A stretch of DNA of 64,000 nucleotides. Source: a bacterium. GTDB taxonomy: Bacteria > Bacillota > Clostridia > Oscillospirales > CAG-272. How positions within the stretch are numbered: the first letter of the stretch is position 1; the number at the start of each line of letters is the position of its first letter. Positions 1,893 through 56,614 of this stretch are shown here, in pieces. Below the pieces are notes generated by a model that made no database searches, was not told where the DNA came from, and saw only the letters and a list, made by a program, of their open reading frames with translations. The stretch spans positions 22,633 to 86,632 of the forward strand of contig CAVIJI010000004.1 in NCBI GenBank assembly GCA_963642885.1. The letters are read 5' to 3'. The translations under genes were made by a program, and so were the position numbers.

Positions 1893-2990
1893 TTGGCAAA
1901 GCTGTTTAAAATAAATGAAAAAGATATCAAACAAGCCGATGATAAAGAAAAAGCTATAGAGACGGAAAAAGAGCTTCCTCCAGATTCGGCACTCGGTAAA
2001 ATGCTCGGCGAAAGCGAGAACACAGTTGAAGCTGCCGAAAAAGCGGAAATCGAAATGCACGAATATTACGAGAAAATGGTCGACGAAAAGTCGGATGTAG
2101 ATGACGCTGGTGTCGAATTAAGGATTGAAGCTTTACGAAAAATTTCATCTAATCTCACAAAAGCAAGCCTGATATCAATCAATCTCGAAGATGAAGTACG
2201 TGCAAGATGGCATGATGTTCAAAAGAGCAAAAAAGGTGTGTTTATACCGCGTGCTCCCGCAAATGCGGAGATTGACTATAAGGAAGTAAAAAAAGACAAC
2301 TTTGCACAGGGAACGAATTTTTACAAGTTGGCTTTGGTCTTTATCATAGGAAGCTTCGTCGGTGTAATAATCGAACTTATTTGGTGCTTCCTCAAGAACG
2401 GATATATAGAAAGCCGTTCGGGATTGGTGTACGGTACTTTTAATTTGCTGTACGGAGTCGGAGCTTTAGCTTTAACCGTGACATTGTATAATTTGCGTAA
2501 CCATTCACGTTGGCTGTCGTTTTTTGGCGGACTTGTGATAGGCAGTGCCGTGGAATACGCATGCTCGTTCGGTCAGGAATTATTGTTCGGCTCACGCTCG
2601 TGGGATTACAGCAACATGCCGTTCAACTTAAACGGAAGAATTTGCTTACTGTATTCCATATTCTGGGGAATTCTCGGCATGATGTGGATTAAGAATCTGT
2701 ATCCCAGATTGTCTGACATTATACTGAAAATACCGAATAAAATAGGTAAAGCGGTAACATGGGTACTTATAATATTTATCGTATTTGACGCTGCCGTGTC
2801 ATTGATTGCGGTGGAACGTTGGGTTCAGAGAAAAGACGGTATCGAAGCGAATAATGCGTTTTTCGAATTCATAGATGAACGATTTGATGATGAAAGAATG
2901 AAAAAAGTGTATGCTAATATGGTATTCGGAGACGAAGAAGAAGAGGATAAAAAAGAGGGAGAGGGAATTATTTCCGAATTATTCGAATAA
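1893..2990 (+). CDS. Multi-pass membrane protein with acidic N-terminal region (possibly PF06541 'putative ABC-transporter type IV' family)
   Basis: Track ORF is 1869..2990. A TTG at 1893 lies 7 nt after GGAGG and avoids overlap with the ftsH stop. The C-terminal half has 5-6 hydrophobic helices and a SWDYS...NGRI pattern. The family call is from memory only. Confidence 0.5.
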   Translation: MAKLFKINEKDIKQADDKEKAIETEKELPPDSALGKMLGESENTVEAAEKAEIEMHEYYEKMVDEKSDVDDAGVELRIEALRKISSNLTKASLISINLEDEVRARWHDVQKSKKGVFIPRAPANAEIDYKEVKKDNFAQGTNFYKLALVFIIGSFVGVIIELIWCFLKNGYIESRSGLVYGTFNLLYGVGALALTVTLYNLRNHSRWLSFFGGLVIGSAVEYACSFGQELLFGSRSWDYSNMPFNLNGRICLLYSIFWGILGMMWIKNLYPRLSDIILKIPNKIGKAVTWVLIIFIVFDAAVSLIAVERWVQRKDGIEANNAFFEFIDERFDDERMKKVYANMVFGDEEEEDKKEGEGIISELFE

Positions 2991-4435: not shown

Positions 4436-4480
4436 TGACGATACACAGATATTTAAAATATTGAAATACAGTTCGGAACA

Positions 4481-4511
4481 AAAAGGGGATGACTTAAGTC
4501 ATCCCCTTTTT
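4481..4511. terminator. Bidirectional terminator between convergent genes
   Basis: aaaaggggatgac-ttaa-gtcatcccctttt is a perfect 13-bp stem flanked by A- and T-runs. Confidence 0.8.
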
Positions 4512-23631: not shown

Positions 23632-23659
23632 TACATCGTTGTCGGGGAAATCCGACTAT

Positions 23660-23743
23660 GCCGGTGTGATGGAATTGGCAGACGTGCTGGACTCAAAATC
23701 CAGTGGTAGCGATACCGTACCGGTTCGACCCCGGTCACCGGCA
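23660..23743 (+). tRNA. tRNA-Leu (anticodon CAA)
   Basis: Hand-folded cloverleaf: acceptor GCCGGTG/CACCGGC, anticodon stem CTGGA/TCCAG with loop CTCAAAA, long variable arm GGTA-GCGA-TACC, T arm ACCGG-TTCGACC-CCGGT, discriminator A. CCA is not encoded. Confidence 0.93.
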
Positions 23744-23756
23744 TGATGATTTAAAG

Positions 23757-32164: not shown

Positions 32165-32195
32165 AAAAAATGACTGCATGGTGCAGTCATTTTTT
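32165..32195. terminator. Bidirectional terminator (GH29 / GH43)
   Basis: aaaaaatgactgca-tgg-tgcagtcatttttt. Confidence 0.8.
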
Positions 32196-40178: not shown

Positions 40179-41645
40179 TCAACCCTGTACGTCCTTAAGC
40201 GCTTCAATCGATTCGGATGATTTCTTGTCGAATTTCTCCTGAAGGCTTTGTGTCATGGATACAAGCTGTTCCGCACCGCTCTTCTGTACACTTGACAGGT
40301 ATGAATTATATACATCCCATGAACCGTAGCACGTCGAGTAGTCGAATGTACGGTTTGCAGTTAAAATGTCAAGCATTTCGGTGGTATCTTCGTCACGTGC
40401 GATTTTACCCTTCAGTGTTGTGTCGTAATACGCTTCCGTCAGGTAAGCATCGGAGTAAATCGCCATTGCTTCGATAACATCGCCTATAACCTCGCGGTTT
40501 GCCGAGGCGGTCTGAGGTATGCACATTGCCTGCGCTGTTGCCTCCATTGAACAGGTGTAATATCCCTGATTTTCGTCACGCATCGGGAAGGGAAGTACGC
40601 CAAACGGGTTTTCCATATTATCACGGAGTTCTTCTATAGATCCGAGCTGCATAATAAAGAACAGACACATGTCTGTGTAGAAGCTGGTATAACCCCAGTT
40701 GTCGTTGTTGACGATTACAGACAGATTTTCATCGTTCAAAAGGGCTGCGACTTTCTCGGTAACTGCGATGACATCGTCGGATGCGGTGTTTAATACAAAC
40801 TTTGTTTCATCCGCGTCATCGCTGAGATATACAAGCTGTACACCGCCGCCGTCTACAAGAGACAGATATTGTCCTATGCCGGTTACCAGTCCGTACATAT
40901 CGCCTTCGTTTCGGATACCGTCACCGTTCGCATCGGAGGAGACGGCTTTCATCAGTTCGCCCATCTTGTCGAGAGTCCATTTCTGCTCACGCACAAGTGT
41001 GTACGGATTGTCCAGCGTATAACGATCTATAAGCGTCTTGTTGAAATACAGCGCGCTGCATCCTTCCATTGAGTGAATGTTTGTGTCGTTGCAGGCAAAG
41101 AACAGTCTTCCGTTGAATGTGAATGCGTCTACCGAGTTTTTATCCCACCATGCGGGTTCAAAGGATAATGCTTCGAAAGAGTTTAAATCCAATAGGTTGC
41201 CGGACTCTGCCGTAGGCAGTAAGCTGTTAATGCGCTCCCATACCTGGTCGTATTCGTCCGAACCCGAATTAACGGATTTCTTTATGTATTGCGGAGCAGC
41301 CTTCGTTTCCTCAAGTGAAAGCTTTACGTTGTAGAGTTCTTCGATAAATAATTTACGCTCGTATACCGTATCATTGATGACTTCACCGGTCATTTCTTCC
41401 GCGTCAAGGGAAATGACCCACCAGTTGGAGTTAATGTCGCCGAGCATTCTGAAAGCATAGCCGCCGTAATCTTTGCTTTGAAGTGCTTCGAGTGCGGATG
41501 TTTCCGCTTCGGTTTCACTTTCCGCAACGGTTTCGTTTGCTAAAGCGGACGAATTATCGGTTGTTTCGGCGGGGGTGTTTTCTCCGCATCCTACAGAGAA
41601 AACAAGTAATAATGCAGCGAGGATAAAGCTTAGAGTTCGTTTCAT
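40179..41645 (-). CDS. ABC transporter extracellular solute-binding lipoprotein (family 1, orphan)
   Basis: 488 aa with lipobox LLVFSVGC and an SBP-like body. No permease or ATPase gene is adjacent. Confidence 0.8.
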   Translation of the reverse strand: MKRTLSFILAALLLVFSVGCGENTPAETTDNSSALANETVAESETEAETSALEALQSKDYGGYAFRMLGDINSNWWVISLDAEEMTGEVINDTVYERKLFIEELYNVKLSLEETKAAPQYIKKSVNSGSDEYDQVWERINSLLPTAESGNLLDLNSFEALSFEPAWWDKNSVDAFTFNGRLFFACNDTNIHSMEGCSALYFNKTLIDRYTLDNPYTLVREQKWTLDKMGELMKAVSSDANGDGIRNEGDMYGLVTGIGQYLSLVDGGGVQLVYLSDDADETKFVLNTASDDVIAVTEKVAALLNDENLSVIVNNDNWGYTSFYTDMCLFFIMQLGSIEELRDNMENPFGVLPFPMRDENQGYYTCSMEATAQAMCIPQTASANREVIGDVIEAMAIYSDAYLTEAYYDTTLKGKIARDEDTTEMLDILTANRTFDYSTCYGSWDVYNSYLSSVQKSGAEQLVSMTQSLQEKFDKKSSESIEALKDVQG

Positions 41646-41942: not shown

Positions 41943-42336
41943 AAAAAACATAGGAGCCATGCTTCATGAAATGAAGCATGGCTCGGGGAGGCGGTGTATT
42001 TGCCGACGTTTAAATTTAACATAATCCGCCGACGTAGAGTAAGGAAAAACATAGGAGCCATACTTCATGAAATGAAGCATGGCTCGGGGAGGCGGTGTAT
42101 TTGCCGACGTTTAAATTTAACATAATCCGCCGACGTAGAGTAAGGAAAAACATAGGAGCCATACTTCATGAAATGAAGCATGGCTCGGGGAGGCGGTGTA
42201 TTTGCCGACGTTTAAATTTAACATAATCCGCCGACGTAGAGTAAGGAAAAACATAGGAGCCATACTTCATGAAATGAAGCATGGCTCGGGGAGGCGGTGT
42301 ATTTGCCGACGTTTAAATTTAACATAATCCGCCGAC
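41943..42336 (-). repeat. Tandem array, 101-bp unit x ~3.9, each unit carrying a 14-bp-stem hairpin
   Basis: cataggagcc recurs at 41949, 42050, 42151 and 42252. The units are identical except for one G/A site. The array ends 1 nt from the methyltransferase stop codon. Confidence 0.95.
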
Positions 42337-42337
42337 A

Positions 42338-43156
42338 TTAGTCAAACATATCGTAATTGCGCTTTTTTCCTATTAAAATGCCGCGCATGCAATACTTTGC
42401 CACAAGAGGATCCTCGCAGGTGTCAATCTGAACCTTGACGAAATTGCGGTACTCATCCTCGCTCATCGCATCGATTTCATCTATCATGTTGTACAAAAGC
42501 GAGTATGTCGATGCAACGGTTATTATCTCGATTCCGTATTCGCGTGCTATGTCCGTCATTTCATCGAGCATCATTCCGTAGAAGTTTTCACATTTGTGGT
42601 TCTTCTCGACATCGGCAAGCTTACGGTAAGCTCTCATTTTGTCAAGAGCGTTTTCCGTACGCATGGCATTAAAATATTGGCCGAGAGTCATTGCCATAGG
42701 TGTCATGTATGTATATGCAATGTATCCGCCCGGTTTTAAGACACGCATGGATTCCTTTATTATAGTTTCACGTTCGGCTCTGGTACATGCATGATAAAGC
42801 GGACCCATGGATACTAATATATCGAAGCTTTCGGAATCGAATTTGGATAGGCTTCTCGGACTTGAACAGTATATATTTTCGAGTAGTGATGCCTTGGGGG
42901 ACGATTTGAGCAGTTCGTAATGTTCTTCGAGAAGGTCACCGGCCGTTACGGTATATCCTTTTTCTGCAAATTTAAATGCGAATGTACCTGTTCCGGCTGC
43001 TGTGTCGATAACTTTTCCCGATTCGGGTAAATACTTATCGAATAAATATTCGATAGTTTCTGTTTCTGCGGAGGTGAGTCGATCTGAATTGTGTTCTTCT
43101 CTGAACAGACCGTAATATTCAAACATGTCCATAAAATTTCTCCGTTGATTTGACAT
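42338..43156 (-). CDS. Class I SAM-dependent methyltransferase
   Basis: Motif I is VIDTAAGTGTFA. The likely true start is ATG 43132 (MDMFEYY), 8 nt after GGAG. Confidence 0.8.
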   Translation of the reverse strand: MSNQRRNFMDMFEYYGLFREEHNSDRLTSAETETIEYLFDKYLPESGKVIDTAAGTGTFAFKFAEKGYTVTAGDLLEEHYELLKSSPKASLLENIYCSSPRSLSKFDSESFDILVSMGPLYHACTRAERETIIKESMRVLKPGGYIAYTYMTPMAMTLGQYFNAMRTENALDKMRAYRKLADVEKNHKCENFYGMMLDEMTDIAREYGIEIITVASTYSLLYNMIDEIDAMSEDEYRNFVKVQIDTCEDPLVAKYCMRGILIGKKRNYDMFD

Positions 43157-46196: not shown

Positions 46197-47699
46197 ATGA
46201 AAAGATTTTTATCTCTTATTTTAGCTGCACTTATCCTTTCCGCTTCATTCACGGCATGTTCGGAAACAACAACAAATGAGAATGATGAGAGCGCGGAAAC
46301 GGAAACGGCTCAATCGGCATCCGAGACGGTAGTGGAAACGGAAGAGGAAACCGAAAAGTATCTTGACGATCTTCCCGAGACAATGGATTTCGGCGGAGAA
46401 ACCGTAAGCTTTTACGTAGAGGACGACGCATCAAACGGATTGGGTGAGCTGTCTATTCTTGCGGAAGAGGATACAGGCGACGTTGTCGATTCTGCCGTAG
46501 TACAGAGAAACAACACCATAACCGAGAGATTGAATATCAACTTGGCTATAACCGAGGTTGTAGGCGGTAACAGTATCAGCTCTGCCCTCAAGACCGGAGT
46601 AGCAGCGGGCGGATGCGACTTTGATATAATGAGCGTATACCAGTACTACGGAGTCGGTACCGCGGCATCGGGCAATGTGTATAACATCGCAAACCTTCCC
46701 TATGTGGACTTCAGCCGCGAATACTGGGGCACAGATTATATCGATAACTTGTCGTACAAGGGCGCGATTTATTGGGCAACAGGCGACATAGCTCTGAAGT
46801 ATATAGGCGGTGCATACTGTACGTATGTTAACGACACAGTATGGAACAACAATTATCCCGACCAGAACGTATACGACATTGTTAACGAAGGTCAATGGAC
46901 TCTTGACAAGTTTACCGAGTTTGCCGAAAAAGTATATTCCGATGCAAACGGTAACGGAGAGAAGGATGTAGATGATATATACGGATTCAACATCTGCTAC
47001 GAAGACCCGGTTGACGGTATGGCTGCAGCTTGCGGAGTAGAATATTCCAAGAAGGACGAAAACGGAGTTCCGGTTATCACTATTGAGAGCGAACACACGA
47101 TAAATGTTTATGATAAGCTTTATAAACTTATCGGTGCAAATCCCAATGTTTACGTAAGTGCCAGCGATGGCGGCGGACAGCAGATGATGAAGCTGTTTGC
47201 AACAGGCAATGCAATGCTTGCCGTAAACAAGCTTTTCCAGGCAGCTGCTTTCTTGCGTGATATGGAAGACACATACAAAATCGTTCCCGCTCCGAAGTAT
47301 GATGAGAACCAGGAATACTATATGACAATGCTTCACGACAGTGTAAACTGCTATGGTATACCTGTTACAAACACGAAATACGAGCTTATGGGTGCAACTC
47401 TCGAAGCTATGGCTTCTGAAAGCTATAAGGTTGTTTCTCCCGCTTACTACGAAAAAGCACTTAAATTCAAGTACGTTCGTGACTCCGAGTCAGGTCAGAT
47501 GATCGAGCTTATTCGTGAGCATGTAACAGCTGACTTTGCAGCACTTTACTCAAACAGCATTTCGAATATTGTACACTTCTTCAGACAACAGCTTGATGCG
47601 GGTACAGAGAACATTACTTCCGTATTCGCAAAGAAGGAAAAGGTTTGGAACAAGGCACTCGAAAAGCTGCTCACCGGACTTGAGGAGAGCGCGGGCTAA
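46197..47699 (+). CDS. ABC transporter extracellular solute-binding lipoprotein (family 1, orphan)
   Basis: The start is placed at ATG 46197 (MKRFLSLILAALILSASFTAC lipobox). It is a paralog of the 40179..41645 protein. No permease gene is adjacent. Confidence 0.8.
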   Translation: MKRFLSLILAALILSASFTACSETTTNENDESAETETAQSASETVVETEEETEKYLDDLPETMDFGGETVSFYVEDDASNGLGELSILAEEDTGDVVDSAVVQRNNTITERLNINLAITEVVGGNSISSALKTGVAAGGCDFDIMSVYQYYGVGTAASGNVYNIANLPYVDFSREYWGTDYIDNLSYKGAIYWATGDIALKYIGGAYCTYVNDTVWNNNYPDQNVYDIVNEGQWTLDKFTEFAEKVYSDANGNGEKDVDDIYGFNICYEDPVDGMAAACGVEYSKKDENGVPVITIESEHTINVYDKLYKLIGANPNVYVSASDGGGQQMMKLFATGNAMLAVNKLFQAAAFLRDMEDTYKIVPAPKYDENQEYYMTMLHDSVNCYGIPVTNTKYELMGATLEAMASESYKVVSPAYYEKALKFKYVRDSESGQMIELIREHVTADFAALYSNSISNIVHFFRQQLDAGTENITSVFAKKEKVWNKALEKLLTGLEESAG

Positions 47700-47700
47700 T

Positions 47701-47847
47701 GAATGGGGATACACCTCATCTTAAGGGTTGAGAAATCCACCCCATTCCCGAGAATTTCCGTAAACGGAAATTCTCCGAAGTGAGGCTTATATGTACGTGG
47801 GATATACCTCATCTTAGGGGTTGAGTAATCCACCCCATTCCCGAATT
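47701..47847 (+). repeat. Mosaic structured repeat: module A - hairpin B - module A
   Basis: Module A1 is GAATGGGG-N31-CCCCATTC (47701-47747). Hairpin B is gagaatttccg-taaa-cggaaattctc (47750-47775). Module A2 is a 5'-truncated copy (47797-47840). Confidence 0.85.
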
Positions 47848-47856
47848 TTAAACAGT

Positions 47857-47904
47857 AAAAAAGGATGTATCCCGAGCGAGTATGCTCGGAGATACATCCT
47901 TTTT
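47857..47904. terminator. Bidirectional terminator
   Basis: aaaaaggatgtatc[ccgagc-gagtat-gctcgg]agatacatccttttt, a nested stem flanked by A/T runs. Confidence 0.75.
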
Positions 47905-51674: not shown

Positions 51675-53771
51675 ATGTTTGAGAATTATAAAACCTTTTC
51701 CTATGACTTTGCCGGACGTCCTCTGGTTATAGAGACGGGTAAAATGGCAGGTCTCGCAAACGGTTCTGTACTTGTGAGATACGGGGATACCGCCGTTCTT
51801 TGCTGTGCTACGGCTTCCGAGAGACCTCGCGACGGTATTGATTTTCTTCCGTTATCCATCGATTTCGAAGAGAGACTTTACGCTGTAGGCAGAATTCCCG
51901 GTTCTTATCTCAAGAGAGAAGGAAGACCGAGCGAAAAAGCCATCCTCACATCGAGAGTTATCGACAGACCTATACGTCCTCTTTTCCCGAAGGACCTCAG
52001 AAACGATGTAGTGCTTTCACTTCTCGTACTTGCGGTTGACCATGACGCTTCACCCGAAATTGCCGCAATGGTAGGTGCGTCCATAGCTTTGTCTATTTCC
52101 GATATTCCGTGGAACGGACCTATCGGCGGAGTTTTTGTCGGCCTGACAGAAGAAGAAGGGCTGATTATCAATCCCACGGCCGAGCAGAGAGAACGTTCTT
52201 CACTCGAACTTACCGTAGCGGGTACAAAGAAAAAAGTCGTTATGATCGAAGCAGGTGCCGCGGAAGTTTCGGATGACAAGATGTTTGAAGCAATCATGCT
52301 CGCTCATGAGGAAATCAAGAAGCTTTGTGCGTTTATCGAGGATATTCAGAGCCAGATCGGTAAGCCGAAGTTCGAGTATCCGTCCGCTGAAGTTCCGCAG
52401 GATTTGTTTGATTCCGTATATGCGTTCTGCGCGGAAGACGTAAAGGTTGCTCTCGACACGGACGACAAGAATGTTCGTGACGCGAGAATGGCACCGATTT
52501 ACGATGCGGTATACACAGAATTCGATAAAGAAAACTCCGAAGAATACCGCAAGGTACTCGACGAGGTTCTCTATAAGGTACAGAAGAAGATTGTAAGACG
52601 TTGGCTTCTTGACGAACAGAAGCGTGTCGACGGCAGAAGAATGGATCAGATTCGTCCTCTTGCAGCCGAGGTACATCTCTTCAACCGTGACCACGGTTCG
52701 GGTATGTTTACCCGTGGCCAGACGCAGGTATTGACAGTTGCGACTCTCGGTTCTATCTCCGATGTACAGATGCTCGACGGTATATCCGAAGAGGAAACAA
52801 AGCGTTACATGCACCATTACAATATGCCCGGTTATTCCACAGGTGAAGCAAAGGCAGTAAGAAGTCCCGGCAGACGTGAAATCGGACACGGTGCTCTTGC
52901 GGAGCGTTCGCTTGTTCCGGTGCTTCCTTCCGTCGAGGAATTCCCGTATGCGATTCGCTGCGTATCGGAAGTAATAAGCTCGAACGGATCGACATCACAG
53001 GCATCCGTGTGCGGTTCCACACTTGCGCTTATGGATGCGGGTGTGCCGATTAAAGCTCCCGTAGCGGGTATTTCCTGCGGACTTATTACCGAGGGTGACA
53101 GATGGATGACCATGGTTGATATTCAAGGTCTCGAAGACTTCTACGGAGACATGGATTTCAAGGTTGCGGGTACACATAAGGGTATTACATCCATTCAGAT
53201 GGACCTTAAGATAGACGGTCTTACTCCCGAGATAATCAAGGAAGCTCTTGCTGTTACTCACAAGGGACGTGACTATATCATTGATGAAGTAATTCTCAAG
53301 GCTATTCCCGCGCCCAGAGCCGAGGTTTCCGAGTACGCTCCCAAGATGATTACCATGAAGATTCCCGTTGACAAGATTGCGGAAGTTATCGGTAAACAGG
53401 GAAGTGTTATCAAGCAGATTGTTGCCGATACCGGAGCAAAGGTTGATATAGAGGAAGACGGTTCCGTATTTATTTCCGGAATCGAGAAGTCATCTCTTGA
53501 TGCTGCCAAGGCAATGATAGATGCGATAATATTCGAGCCTGTTGTCGGCGACATATATGAAGGTGTAGTAACGAGAATCATACCGATTGGTGCGTTCGTT
53601 GAGTTTGCTCCCAAGAAGGAGGGAATGGTTCACATTTCCAAGCTCGACAAAAAGCGTACCGAAAAGGTAGAGGATGTATGCAATATCGGCGACAAGATTA
53701 AGGTTAAGTTCCTCGGTGTCGACGAAAAGGGAAGATTCAATCTTTCGAGAAAAGATGCTTTGGATGACTGA
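51675..53771 (+). CDS. pnp: Polyribonucleotide nucleotidyltransferase (PNPase)
   Basis: 698 aa with two RNase PH domains, KH (GKQGSVIKQI) and S1 (GDIYEGVVTRIIPIGAFVEF). Confidence 0.96.
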   Translation: MFENYKTFSYDFAGRPLVIETGKMAGLANGSVLVRYGDTAVLCCATASERPRDGIDFLPLSIDFEERLYAVGRIPGSYLKREGRPSEKAILTSRVIDRPIRPLFPKDLRNDVVLSLLVLAVDHDASPEIAAMVGASIALSISDIPWNGPIGGVFVGLTEEEGLIINPTAEQRERSSLELTVAGTKKKVVMIEAGAAEVSDDKMFEAIMLAHEEIKKLCAFIEDIQSQIGKPKFEYPSAEVPQDLFDSVYAFCAEDVKVALDTDDKNVRDARMAPIYDAVYTEFDKENSEEYRKVLDEVLYKVQKKIVRRWLLDEQKRVDGRRMDQIRPLAAEVHLFNRDHGSGMFTRGQTQVLTVATLGSISDVQMLDGISEEETKRYMHHYNMPGYSTGEAKAVRSPGRREIGHGALAERSLVPVLPSVEEFPYAIRCVSEVISSNGSTSQASVCGSTLALMDAGVPIKAPVAGISCGLITEGDRWMTMVDIQGLEDFYGDMDFKVAGTHKGITSIQMDLKIDGLTPEIIKEALAVTHKGRDYIIDEVILKAIPAPRAEVSEYAPKMITMKIPVDKIAEVIGKQGSVIKQIVADTGAKVDIEEDGSVFISGIEKSSLDAAKAMIDAIIFEPVVGDIYEGVVTRIIPIGAFVEFAPKKEGMVHISKLDKKRTEKVEDVCNIGDKIKVKFLGVDEKGRFNLSRKDALDD

Positions 53772-53816
53772 GCGGGGATACTCTAAAGCTGAATAGTTAA
53801 GGAAACCACCCCGCTC
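53770..53816 (+). repeat. Solo repeat module A (stem-N31-stem) overlapping the pnp stop codon
   Basis: GAGCGGGG-N31-CCCCGCTC. The 5' arm starts inside the TGA at 53769-53771. Confidence 0.8.
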
Positions 53817-53818
53817 TC

Positions 53819-53864
53819 GAGCTTGCACGTTTGCCTACGGCAAACGTGCAAGCTCCTTTATTTT
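53819..53864 (+). terminator. pnp rho-independent terminator
   Basis: gagcttgcacgtttgcc-tac-ggcaaacgtgcaagctc is a perfect 17-bp stem followed by ctttatttt. Confidence 0.85.
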
Positions 53865-53875
53865 GGCTTAGATTT

Positions 53876-53922
53876 GAGCGGGGATACTCCGAAGCTGAAT
53901 AGCAGAGAAAACCACCCCGCTC
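53876..53922 (+). repeat. Solo repeat module A, second copy
   Basis: GAGCGGGG-N31-CCCCGCTC. The loop is about 70% identical to the copy at 53770. Confidence 0.8.
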
Positions 53923-53928
53923 CCGTGT

Positions 53929-54440
53929 CGGCGGAATCAGTTCGGTTTTGAGGTGGAGCAATAAACCGCCTCCATGAGAATTTTCTCAAAGAAAATTCTC
54001 CGATGTACTGCTTAGGTTTAAGCGGCGGAATCAGTTCGGTTTTGAGGTGGAGCAATAAACCGCCTCCATGAGAATTTTCTCAAAGAAAATTCTCCGATGT
54101 ACTGCTTAGGTTTAAGCGGCGGAATCAGTTCGGTTTTGAGGTGGAGCAATAAACCGCCTCCATGAGAATTTTCTCAAAGAAAATTCTCCGATGTACTGCT
54201 TAGGTTTAAGCGGCGGAATCAGTTCGGTTTTGAGGTGGAGCAATAAACCGCCTCCATGAGAATTTTCTCAAAGAAAATTCTCCGATGTACTGCTTAGGTT
54301 TAAGCGGCGGAATCAGTTCGGTTTTGAGGTGGAGCAATAAACCGCCTCCATGAGAATTTTCTCAAAGAAAATTCTCCGAGGTACTGCTTAGGTTTAAGCG
54401 GTGGATTCAGTTCGGTTTTGAGGTGGAGCAATAGAACGCC
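53929..54440 (+). repeat. Tandem array, 94-bp unit x ~5.4, two hairpins per unit
   Basis: gcggaatcag recurs at 53931, 54025, 54119, 54213 and 54307, with a degenerate copy at 54401. Each unit contains gagaattttc-tcaaa-gaaaattctc. Confidence 0.95.
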
Positions 54441-54457
54441 CACGGTATGGTAATTGA

Positions 54458-54493
54458 ATAAATAAAACCCGACGGACTTTAATCTGTCGGGTT
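54458..54493 (-). terminator. glnN terminator
   Basis: The minus strand has aacccgac-N12-gtcgggtt followed by ttatttatt, 22 nt after the stop. Confidence 0.7.
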
Positions 54494-54514: not shown

Positions 54515-56614
54515 TTATGAAATACCGAACAGGAGCTTTGAGTAAGTGGGGTATCTCCAGTACTTCATATCGGTTATGCTTTCGGCTTCGTCGCATGCTT
54601 CGCGCAGCTTCTCCATAGTGACGATAATCTTTCCTTTAACCGCGAATGATGCTTCCGTCATATCGGAAATTTCATCGACCGTTTTTACTTCACTGTCAAG
54701 CTTTTCGGTAAGTGATGCAATAGACGAAGAGAGGACTGAGAGCTTTTCGACGAGCTTTTGCTCATAATCTGTGGAAATTGAAGGAGAAAGAGTACGCTTC
54801 ATCACGCCGGTTTCGCTGATTGCTTTCGTATATTCGCTGACAGCGGGAAGTATTTGCTTGTAAATCATGTCAATCATAACATTGGCTTCGATTTTGATGG
54901 TTTTAACATAATTTTCAAGCATTATTTCATATCTCGAGCGCATTTCCGTCTCGGTATAGACATGGTGTGTTTTAAACAGCTCTATATTCTTCTCGGTGAG
55001 GTACATTGTGAGAGCTTCGGGTGTCGAACGAAGGTTAAGCAGACCGCGCACGTCGGTTGCCTCTTCTATCCACTCATTATCGTAACCGTTGCCGTTGAAT
55101 ATGATTCTCTTGTGCTTTTTAATTGTATCTCTGATTAAATTATTGAGTTCTTCCTGGAAGTTGTCGGATGCTTCGAGGATGTCGGCGAACTGTCTCAATG
55201 ATTCAGCTACCGCTGTGTTGAGTACCGTGTTGCAGTCTGCGATAGAGCTTGAAGAACCTACCATACGGAATTCGAATTTATTTCCCGTGAACGCGAACGG
55301 CGAGGTGCGGTTTCTGTCCGTTGTGTCCTTCGGAAGCTTGGGAAGAATAACCGTTCCGAGATGAAGTCTTGAGGTTTCTTTCGGGTCGTAGTGTTTATCG
55401 GATTCAAGCGCATTCAATATATCCGTGAGTTCATCTCCGAGGAATATAGATATAACGGCGGGAGGCGCTTCGTTTGCACCGAGACGATGGTCGTTTCCCG
55501 CTGTAGCGGCACTGATTCTAAGTAATGCCTGATATTCGTCAACGGCTTTGATAACGGCACAGAGGAAAAGAAGAAATTGAGCATTATCATGCGGCGTATC
55601 ACCCGGGGTAAGAAGATTTACGCCTGTATTGGTACCTATAGACCAGTTATTGTGTTTGCCGGAGCCGTTTACACCGTTAAACGGTTTTTCGTGGAGAAGA
55701 CAAACGAGGCCATGACGCTTTGCTACCTTTTTCATGATTTCCATTGTAAGCTGGTTGTGGTCGGTAGCTATATTGGCTTGCGTGAATATAGGAGCGAGCT
55801 CGTGCTGTGCGGGAGCGGCTTCGTTGTGTTCGGTTTTTGCAAAAATACCGAGCTTCCACAATTCCACATCAAGCTCTCTCATGAAAGCTTCCACTTTAGG
55901 TTTAATAACTCCGAAATAATGGTCGTCAAGCTCCTGACCCTTGAGTGAGCGCGCTCCGAAAAGAGTTCTGCCGGTGAAGATAAGGTCCTCGCGCTTGTTG
56001 TACATTTCTTCGGGAACGAGGAAGTATTCCTGCTCGGGGCCTACACTTGTTCTGACACATGTGACATCGGTATTGGGGTCGAAAAGCTTCAGAATACGGA
56101 GCGATTGCTTGTTTATCGCTTCCATTGAGCGTAAGAGAGGGGTTTTTGTGTCAAGAGCTTCACCACCGTATGAACAGAACGCGGTGGGAATACATAATGT
56201 GTCGTCTTTGATGAAGGCATATGATGTGGGGTCCCATGCCGTATAGCCTCTTGCTTCGAATGTGGCTCTTAAGCCGCCCGAGGGGAACGATGATGCATCA
56301 GGCTCACCTCGTACAAGTTCTTTACCGGAGAATTCCATTATTACCTTACCGTCACCGATCGGCGAAATAAAGCTGTCGTGTTTTTCGGCGGTAAAGCCGG
56401 TTAAAGGCTGAAACCAATGCGTATAGTGAGTGCAGCCATGTTCCACAGCCCAGTCCTTCATTGCGTTTGCTACAATATTAGCCACACCGAGATCAAGCTG
56501 TCTGTTTTCGTCGATTGTTTTTTTAAGAGACTTATACGTTTCCTTCGGAAGTCTTTCCTTCATGGTTGTGTCATCAAAGGAAAGACAGCCGAAATATTCG
56601 CTGACTGTAGACAT
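54515..56614 (-). CDS. glnN: Glutamine synthetase type III
   Basis: 699 aa with a typical GSIII N-terminus ([26 protein letters not shown]) and length. Confidence 0.9.

Follow-up and report, generated by a model that had tools for sequence, protein, structure and literature searches.

A 94-bp tandem array between pnp and glnN of an uncultured gut Clostridium belongs to a family of two-hairpin intergenic repeats

Introduction

The described bacterial repeats that come closest to the element reported here are the MIRU-VNTR of mycobacteria, the REP/BIME of gamma-proteobacteria and the pneumococcal BOX element, to which ordinary Rho-independent terminators can be added. The element is a head-to-tail array of 94-bp units located between the convergent genes pnp and glnN in a stretch of 64,000 nt from an uncultured member of the Clostridia (contig CAVIJI010000004.1; the whole stretch is referred to as the window), and it is one of several tandem amplifications of an undescribed family of intergenic repeats, the units of which contain two hairpins. 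A preliminary description of this DNA had presented the array as a singular feature in need of its own explanation: this no longer holds, with three loci of the family in the window and a further five in two other contigs.

In case of the MIRU-VNTR, Supply and colleagues reportedly described (1997, 2000) intergenic head-to-tail units of 46–101 bp with a copy number that is polymorphic between strains; the units are said to be oriented with the flanking genes and often to overlap a stop codon, and also to be without dyad symmetry, to lie within operons and to contain small coupled open reading frames. The family resembles them in forming intergenic head-to-tail arrays (periods of 93, 94, 101 and 106 bp) that vary between strains at two loci (E and A, see below), but its units are dominated by two hairpins, include terminators and have no phased open reading frame (94 = 3 × 31 + 1).

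The REP/BIME of E. coli and other gamma-proteobacteria (e.g. REP325, with 12 palindromic units) are, like the family, species-specific structured extragenic repeats that lie mostly in 3' untranslated regions (UTRs) and between convergent genes, that are mosaics of few hairpin types and linkers and that form clusters of variable unit number, with location and number differing between strains. Some REPs fall together with intrinsic terminators, and their clusters have been reported as combined terminator and mRNA stabiliser (bioRxiv 10.64898/2026.03.23.713779). The family shares the extragenic, mostly 3' UTR placement, as all eight of its loci are intergenic and six follow a co-oriented stop codon; however, the sequences are not similar, and the family comes from a Firmicute host (an Oscillospiraceae-like Clostridium). 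Whilst REP/BIME consist of alternating inverted palindromic units of 30–50 bp (Y, Z1, Z2), the family consists of direct head-to-tail composites of 93–106 bp with two hairpins each; its stem-loop 1 has a loop of 29–31 nt, where REP is a near-perfect palindrome with a bulge, and its ancestral unit would have carried a canonical T-run terminator, which most REPs lack. A RAYT-type (Y1) transposase was not found in the 64-kb window and the few contigs examined.

The BOX element (boxA-boxB(n)-boxC) is likewise a composite repeat of a Firmicute with an internal module in a variable tandem array; it is highly base-paired, belongs to one species group and is thought to affect co-transcribed genes (PMC3049150). 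Here again there is no sequence similarity, and BOX has boxA and boxC ends with terminal inverted repeats like those of insertion sequences, whereas the family repeats the whole unit, has no end modules and docks with its 5' end on stop codons: its arrays start with a normal unit at the stop codon and finish with a truncated stem-loop 1, boxA/boxC-type ends being absent. Ordinary Rho-independent terminators are matched by the second hairpin of several unit types (A, C, F and H), with the difference that the terminator of the family is embedded in a larger repeated cassette and that the hairpin of the 94-bp unit is AT-rich, folds with only -11 kcal/mol and is followed by CGATGTACTG in place of a T-run. 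By these comparisons, the family is best placed amongst structured interspersed and tandem intergenic repeats and is a member of none of REP/BIME, BOX and MIRU-VNTR. We consider it likely that the 94-bp array is a recently amplified or homogenised array of a decayed unit type within this lineage-specific mosaic family.

Results and Discussion

The 94-bp array and its unit

The following features make up the array, the unit of which we refer to as type B:

53929–54398, plus strand: five full 94-bp B units (Tandem Repeats Finder, 24-mer count, fold, covariance model, unit comparison)
53976–54000, 54070–54094, 54164–54188, 54258–54282 and 54352–54376, plus strand: the copies of B hairpin 2, with no T-run behind
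54399–54448, plus strand: degenerate sixth B unit, stem-loop 1 only (44.5 bits; the interior units are less diverged)

Tandem Repeats Finder reports the array at 53929–54440 on the plus strand with a period of 94, 5.4 copies, 98% matches and a score of 989, in agreement with the period and copy number given in the preliminary description. Unit-by-unit comparison resolves this into five full units starting at 53929, 54023, 54117, 54211 and 54305 and one degenerate partial copy from 54399; the starts given before had been set 2 nt out of this phase, an arbitrary choice that leaves the period correct. Units 1–4 are identical and the sole change in unit 5 is T>G at 54380, a substitution that had been noticed but placed near 54370, whilst the sixth copy shows 4 differences within its first ~38 nt and is divergent thereafter. 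A 24-mer of the B unit occurs 5 times, compared to 0 times in 100 shuffles. Each full unit carries, as had been recognised, the perfect hairpin GAGAATTTTC-TCAAA-GAAAATTCTC (hairpin 2; AT-rich stem of 10–11 bp, fold energy -11 kcal/mol), followed by the linker CGATGTACTGCTTAGGTTTAAG. In front of it lies stem-loop 1, with an outer GGCGG/CCGCC stem and an inner alternative, GAGGTGG/CCGCCTC; the latter is the predicted minimum-energy pairing of a single 94-bp unit, which bears out the pairing proposed earlier.

Independent short-read assemblies contain the start of the array (contig L002) and its end (contig L003), both breaking inside it: the array is real and present in other samples too, and an absence from independent assemblies, named beforehand as an outcome that would speak against it, was not observed. 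The figure of 5.4 copies is that of one assembly, the independent assemblies confirming the existence of the array and not its copy count.

The array has no coding capacity in any of the six frames (longest open stretch at most 51 codons), and a protein-coding reading was rejected, as the period does not divide by 3 and each of the six frames is closed. CRISPR arrays consist of short repeats (about 23–55 bp) with unique spacers; here, the identity extends over whole 94-bp units and nothing unique separates the copies, and a CRISPR array was likewise rejected. Integron attC sites have R''/R' core sites (RYYYAAC ... GTTRRRY) that bracket an imperfect palindrome, together with cassette open reading frames and a nearby integrase: an attC or cassette array was rejected given that the unit has no GTTRRRY/RYYYAAC pair, that there are no open reading frames between units and that the window has no integrase.

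A family of homologous units

The array is preceded by units of a second type, A, and two sister loci, C and E, lie elsewhere in the window:

53770–53816, plus strand: unit A stem-loop 1, closing stem GAGCGGGG/CCCCGCTC of 8 bp (covariance model R1 match at 53770–53821, 57 bits)
53819–53865, plus strand: unit A hairpin 2, which is the intrinsic terminator of pnp; 17-bp perfect GAG...CTC stem, then CTTTATTTTG (fold -31.3 kcal/mol)
53866–53875, plus strand: linker of unit A, GCTTAGATTT; the 94-bp unit has GCTTAGGTTTAAG as its homologous linker (alignment)
53876–53922, plus strand: second unit A copy, stem-loop 1 only, directly joined to the 94-bp array (45.8 bits)
41944–42336, minus strand: sister array C, 101 bp × 3.9 (Tandem Repeats Finder, terminator scan, covariance model)
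47700–47845, plus strand: sister locus E, 93-bp unit × 1.5, directly after the TAA of a 500-aa gene
47857–47895, both strands: bidirectional terminator closing locus E, 20-bp stem (fold -31.3 kcal/mol)

The three loci are built from homologous units of four types (A, 106 bp; B, 94 bp; C, 101 bp; E, 93 bp) that follow a common plan: a stem-loop 1 in a fixed frame of 52 nt with a loop of about 30 nt, then, 2 bases later, hairpin 2 as a perfect GAG...CTC-C palindrome, and finally a linker containing GCTTA. The 5' arm of stem-loop 1 occurs as GAGCGGGG, GAATGGGG or xxCGGCGG, and the 3' arm as CCCCGCTC, CCCCATTC or CCGCCTCC. In minus-strand orientation, array C can be aligned to both the 94-bp unit and the sequence containing the pnp terminator; 12 stem-loop 1 sequences align gap-free, and units A, B, C and E of the window, D and F of contig L146 and F, G and H of contig L232 (both described below) show a gap-free or near gap-free alignment over a frame of 52–54 nt. 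A covariance model of the stem-loop 1 frame (R1) finds 14 modules in the window at 44–68 bits, all of them in the three loci, the next best match outside these reaching 12.6 bits.

Unit A is present in 1.5 copies (53770–53925), its stem beginning with the GA of the pnp stop codon TGA. The terminator of pnp, which had been taken as separate from the array, thus forms hairpin 2 of a homologous unit, 106 bp long, with its start at the pnp stop codon. Array C starts 2 nt past the stop of an S-adenosylmethionine-dependent methyltransferase gene (42338–43132, minus strand), and each of its units has a terminator-like hairpin with a T-run, making four tandem terminators; it is also present in the metagenome-assembled genome (MAG) GCA_963622785.1, in which the contig breaks after 1.5 units. 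Locus E came to light by listing 110 nt downstream of every gene of the window. Its end has the same layout as that of the 94-bp array: a copy consisting of stem-loop 1 only, then an unrelated strong bidirectional terminator.

Two paralogous proteins of ~490–500 aa adjoin arrays C and E (40179–41645, minus strand; 46197–47699, plus strand), and a third paralogue lies near the repeat of L146 (L146 6–974). The two of the window match no Pfam or PADLOC model; weak matches in several relatives (tblastn) point to a solute-binding-like family, and the adjacency of these genes to the repeats may be coincidence.

Covariation of stem-loop 1 and the form of hairpin 2

Pair counts were made on 20 distinct stem-loop 1 sequences from four sources. 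In the closing stem, 83% of cells are paired, compared to 43–53% when the 3' partner is slid by 1–3 columns, and none of 500 shuffles reached the observed pairing. Two-sided changes occur in five of the eight closing-stem pairs, the clearest compensatory ones being pairs 4-46 (GC, UA, CG), 6-44 (GC, CG, UG), 8-42 (GC, AU) and 3-47 (GC, AU, GU). Of these eight pairs, RNAalifold independently recovers the inner five, with no further pairing predicted: inner structure in the loop was rejected on this ground. Several loop positions are conserved at a fixed spacing of 29–31 nt. The stem conserved throughout the family is the outer GGCGG/CCGCC, whilst GAGGTGG/CCGCCTC is specific to type B. With 3 G.U pairs compared to 2 A.C mismatches, wobble pairs are balanced across the family, so that no strand can be deduced from them; the earlier argument that a G:U pair in the GAGGTGG/CCGCCTC stem points to the plus strand concerned the B-only stem and fails for lack of any family-wide asymmetry. 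In the hairpins of array C, a G.U pair is found in the sense orientation in three of four.

In case of hairpin 2, the form is retained and the sequence is not: it is always a perfect GAG...CTC palindrome, with stems of 17 bp (A), 14 bp (C), 11 bp (E) and 10 bp (B), and types A, C and E/B have unrelated sequences in it, B and E differing by one compensatory C-G to T-A change. This argues against a sequence-specific DNA-binding site. An array of sites acting at the DNA level (binding of a nucleoid, partition or replication protein, a replication terminus or a recombination site) would account for regularly spaced palindromes in apparently untranscribed DNA; next to the complete change of palindrome sequence between unit types, however, the hairpin arm is not over-represented outside the modules, arrays are found at many unrelated loci and the GC skew has no sign change at 54 kb. 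We regard such a role as very unlikely. Of the explanations that had been put forward, a sequence-specific protein-binding array is unlikely, because only the palindromic form is conserved between unit types, and a role in replication termination finds no support, because the skew keeps the same sign across 52–64 kb. Two specific candidates were rejected on the same data: a replication terminus (the GC skew does not switch) and an uptake-sequence-like motif (outside the modules, the hairpin arm shows no enrichment). A hammerhead-like CUGA...GAAA in unit A was also rejected, since the essential G8 is absent and there is no Rfam match.

Terminator form and its loss in the 94-bp unit

The hairpin of unit A and all four hairpins of array C score as intrinsic terminators in a terminator scan, and hairpin 2 of units A, C, F and H combines a GC-containing perfect stem with a T-run; the linker consensus after hairpin 2 in L232 is CGTTTTTAAGGCTTAAC. 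The tails of hairpin 2 in B (CGATGTACTGCTTAGG) and E (CGAAGTGAGGCTTAT) have both lost the T-run, and the terminator scan is silent on the 94-bp unit. Comparison of the unit types thus suggests that the ancestral unit carries an intrinsic terminator and that the 94-bp unit has lost its T-run, and with the T-run decayed the B hairpin is not expected to terminate transcription. The surroundings of the array do contain predicted terminators, as stated in the preliminary description: that of pnp (hairpin 53819–53855 plus T-run, 17-bp stem, -31.3 kcal/mol) on one side and, on the other, the following feature.

54466–54493, both strands: bidirectional intrinsic terminator with T-runs on both strands (terminator scan, fold)

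The latter is predicted to end glnN on the minus strand and would halt any plus-strand transcript reading through the array. In plus-strand direction, the array thus lies between a -31 kcal/mol terminator and a second terminator, and on the minus strand it lies behind the terminator of glnN: boxed in by these two, it is probably transcribed by rare read-through only and, as far as terminator predictions go, is probably almost silent at this locus. A promoter scan gave no sigma-70-like site inside the array, in line with the earlier failure to see a -35/-10 pair there.

Near-identical structured tandem units together with a terminator superficially resemble the toxI layout, and the array could on this basis be a small RNA gene array, for instance one for a repeat RNA like the type III antitoxins or for some other non-coding RNA that is processed. 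Type III toxin-antitoxin systems consist of a promoter, tandem repeats, a terminator and toxN, cptN or tenpN on the same strand (PMC3401426). Such a system was rejected here: the array has no promoter-like site within it or ahead of it, no plus-strand gene follows the terminator, the next gene being the convergent glnN, and no neighbouring protein matches the PADLOC toxin models or defence models. In the whole window tRNA alone passes the Rfam gathering threshold, the arrays giving only sub-threshold chance matches at E<=10, and the 94-nt units are homologous to terminator cassettes at ordinary gene ends. Taken together, a small RNA array of any kind is extremely improbable. The tRNA is a tRNA-Leu (CAA) at 23659–23744 of the window, the only RNA gene seen by Rfam and ARAGORN.

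Members elsewhere and placement at gene ends

The members outside the window come from two contigs, L146 and L232, of one rumen co-assembly (binchicken_co323), which were binned as 'Prevotella' and 'Ruminococcus sp.', respectively. L146 (CAZDOH010000147.1) is a contig of 2.2 kb from an 'uncultured Prevotella' MAG with Firmicute-type genes (DUF1292, YgjV-like) and two family members; its gene content and the co-assembly shared with the 'Ruminococcus sp.' contig L232 indicate that it is probably mis-binned. One of its members, a D-type unit, lies two bases past the stop of the DUF1292 gene at a contig break, and the other, an F-type unit, is antisense to the upstream YgjV-like gene. In L232, three F-type units are fused to guaA, one unit is fused to the TGA of a CBM9-domain gene, and a G-type array of at least 4 units (2025–2440, plus strand; period 95, broken by a run of N) lies between the divergent genes guaA and mnmG (gidA). 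The 5' edge of the G-type array touches a TTGCAT-17-TATAAT promoter-like site for guaA; this locus, in a promoter region, is the sole one of the family that lies away from a gene 3' end.

Thus, the census comprises 8 loci, all intergenic: six directly follow a co-oriented stop codon, one is antisense and one lies between divergent genes. All three loci of the window are in sense to the upstream gene and start at its stop codon, the junctions reading ...GAC-TGA-GCGGGG for pnp (the GAG of the unit overlapping the TGA), TAA-TGAATGGGG for the 500-aa gene of locus E and TAA-TG-TCGGCGGA for the methyltransferase gene of array C. At guaA the overlap extends into the coding region: the 5' arm of F-type stem-loop 1 falls exactly on the last codons of the native GMP synthase gene, GAG-TGG-GAA-TAA (EWE-stop; L232 416–427, minus strand), and GAGTGGGAATAA of the guaA end is seen again in the internal units as well as at other loci. 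This could mean that docking of the repeat took place by microhomology, or else that the guaA 3' end was the source of this unit type. The family therefore behaves as a general repeat of intergenic DNA, with gene ends preferred strongly but not exclusively.

This preference is one argument for the view that the modules are functional 3'-end devices, with hairpins that trap or pause read-through (of pnp, or of glnN in antisense), block 3'-to-5' exonucleases and insulate convergent genes. Modules are co-oriented with and fused to the upstream stop codon at six of eight loci, hairpin 2 in its ancestral form is, in this very orientation, an intrinsic terminator, and array C provides four tandem terminators to a gene that has no other; in addition, REP clusters between convergent genes have been reported to act as terminator and stabiliser (bioRxiv 10.64898/2026.03.23.713779). 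The B hairpin itself, however, is weak (-11 kcal/mol) and without T-run, and its array lies downstream of a -31 kcal/mol terminator, so that little RNA should arrive. Strains differ in copy number, a plain terminator after pnp suffices in close relatives, and such a device makes no sense for the array between divergent genes and for the antisense unit. On balance we find this explanation unlikely for the 94-bp array.

The family is restricted to a single group of uncultured Clostridia of the gut. Over 750 kb around pnp, R1 had no matches beyond same-species contigs and L146; the 735 kb of this that belong to 80 related species thus contain no member, and Tandem Repeats Finder gave no comparable long-period arrays there. 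Pattern scans covered genome contigs, JGI metagenomes and viral contigs and found real members only in L146 and L232, with none in the JGI metagenomes or viral contigs: a first family pattern with a variable gap was swamped by chance matches in high-GC genomes and gave L146 alone as real, and a tighter fixed-gap pattern gave L146 alone in the genome contigs, its JGI and viral matches all being chance matches in GC-rich coding DNA. An exact 24-mer of the unit had no match in the genome contigs, and there was no BLAST match in phage and plasmid collections. An empty-site comparison for locus E led to relatives in which the neighbouring gene is not conserved. Another Clostridia MAG contains an unrelated GC-rich repeat of ~88 bp (gccttcccccgggtggggaaggtggcgcgccagcgacggatgagggcgaa...) in 2.2 copies at a contig end (L053 1–200), which belongs to a different family.

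Copy-number dynamics and mosaicism

Identity between unit types is 46–73%, compared to 98–100% within one array. The terminal B unit is the most diverged copy, and in L003, from another strain, it shows three further single-nucleotide polymorphisms although GlnN is identical. A comparison of copy number among related genomes, which had been suggested as a check, revealed whole-unit differences at two loci: locus E has 1.5 units in the window and 2.5 in MAG GCA_963620065.1 (L001 1914–2200), with identical PNPase, and locus A has 1.5 copies in the window and at least 2 full A units in the same MAG, with the variants in opposite order. Contigs of three MAGs and one Logan assembly end inside arrays A/B or C, as short-read assemblers are expected to do where such repeats occur. 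The last copy in an array is a truncated stem-loop 1 of 13–52 nt, and the units are mosaic: the 28-nt hairpin 2 of E also adjoins F-type stem-loops, and a disrupted A-type hairpin is found within the F array of L232. The high identity within arrays, diverged edges, whole-unit differences and truncated ends fit unequal recombination or replication slippage, which would be the mechanism of amplification.

A different origin of the arrays would be repeated insertion beside an existing copy by a non-autonomous mobile element, similar to a miniature inverted-repeat transposable element (MITE) or REP, that is moved in trans (e.g. by a hairpin-recognising Y1/HUH transposase) and prefers stop-codon or terminator targets. 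In keeping with this, units lie scattered over unrelated loci of housekeeping genes and combine stem-loop 1 and hairpin 2 types in mosaic fashion, the 5' boundary (TGAG.GGG or GTCGGCGGA) is conserved exactly at stop codons, the stop of pnp is TGA here and TAA in its closest relative with the last residue unchanged, and the distribution is lineage-restricted, as it is for BOX/RUP/SPRITE. In terms of MITE features, the arms of stem-loop 1 can be read as inverted repeats of 5–8 bp, but terminal inverted repeats spanning the whole unit and a recognisable target-site duplication are lacking, and neither the 64-kb window nor the vicinity of any locus contains a transposase or integrase. Moreover, the truncated ends of 13–52 nt fit recombination or slippage better than defined transposon ends do, and identity within arrays is far above that between loci. 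Such an element is possible, yet rather doubtful, as the source of the array. A more specific form of the idea is that the family is a non-autonomous mobile 'gene-end cassette' that docks precisely on stop codons and is spread by a hairpin-recognising enzyme: it could bring its own TGA or replace the last codons (guaA), and could supply a structured 3' UTR and an intrinsic terminator, the conserved loop of stem-loop 1 could be its recognition site and the arrays could be the trace of self-targeted insertion. We deem this version improbable.

Origin of the 94-bp array

The reading that we prefer for the 94-bp array, amplification of a decayed member of the family, can be put as follows. The unit of 93–106 bp would be a 'gene-end cassette' reaching from stop codon to terminator, in which a stem-loop starting at, or a few bases from, the stop codon is followed by a perfect GAG[stem]CTC hairpin, ancestrally with a T-run and hence an intrinsic terminator, and by a short linker (GGCTTA...). 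Units would multiply head-to-tail by unequal homologous recombination or replication slippage between neighbours, and the same process would keep the copies within an array nearly identical. The 94-bp array would then be largely neutral or selfish repeat DNA, with incidental effects such as spacing and insulating the convergent genes pnp and glnN and adding hairpins to read-through RNA. Among the four options offered at the outset, a recently expanded mobile module comes closest to this evidence. The absence of a dedicated function is a weaker proposition than membership of the family and amplification.

Several points weigh against this reading. The census is small, with 8 loci from three sources, two of which are contigs of the same co-assembly, and the copy number of 5.4 comes from one assembly only. 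That the array would be largely untranscribed is deduced from predicted terminators. No transposase, integrase or target-site duplication was seen in the window or beside the loci. Finally, the co-oriented joins to stop codons at six of eight loci, together with the conserved loop positions, hint at selection at the level of RNA or of recognition, for which neutrality alone gives no explanation. It is this bias in orientation and stop-codon placement and these loop positions of stem-loop 1 that keep the functional and the mobile explanation alive; a functional 3'-end role and mobilisation in trans are both compatible with family membership plus amplification and are not exclusive of it.

With this hitherto undescribed family, the few mosaic intergenic repeats known from bacteria are joined by a structured repeat of an uncultured Clostridia lineage of rumen and gut. 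In the way its units attach precisely to stop codons and a terminator serves again as a repeat module, the family offers a case of remodelling of gene 3' ends. A new biological question would be opened only by a demonstration of mobility or RNA function. On the practical side, the arrays break short-read assemblies, with several MAG contigs of this species ending inside them, and their copy number could serve as a strain marker, as in VNTR typing.

Genomic setting

The gene to the left of the array is pnp, encoding polynucleotide phosphorylase (PNPase; 51675–53771, plus strand; 938 bits to the NCBIfam equivalog), and that to the right is glnN (54515–56614, minus strand), the product of which is a type III glutamine synthetase with GSIII_N, Gln-synt_C and Gln-synt_C-ter domains. 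The organism belongs to an uncultured Oscillospiraceae / 'Ruminococcus sp.' lineage of herbivore guts. In the closest PNPase relative (90% identity) the protein ends in the same residue, the stop codon is TAA, compared to TGA here (53769–53771), and a plain terminator and a different downstream gene follow. The genes of the window are ordinary housekeeping and carbohydrate utilisation genes, with no transposase, integrase or defence gene amongst them over the 64 kb. At two other convergent gene pairs of the window (4470–4500 and 32165–32195) the junction consists of a single bidirectional terminator (aaaaaggggatgacttaagtcatcccctttttc and aaaaaatgactgcatggtgcagtcatttttt, respectively) without a repeat module, which represents the 'normal' convergent layout in this genome.

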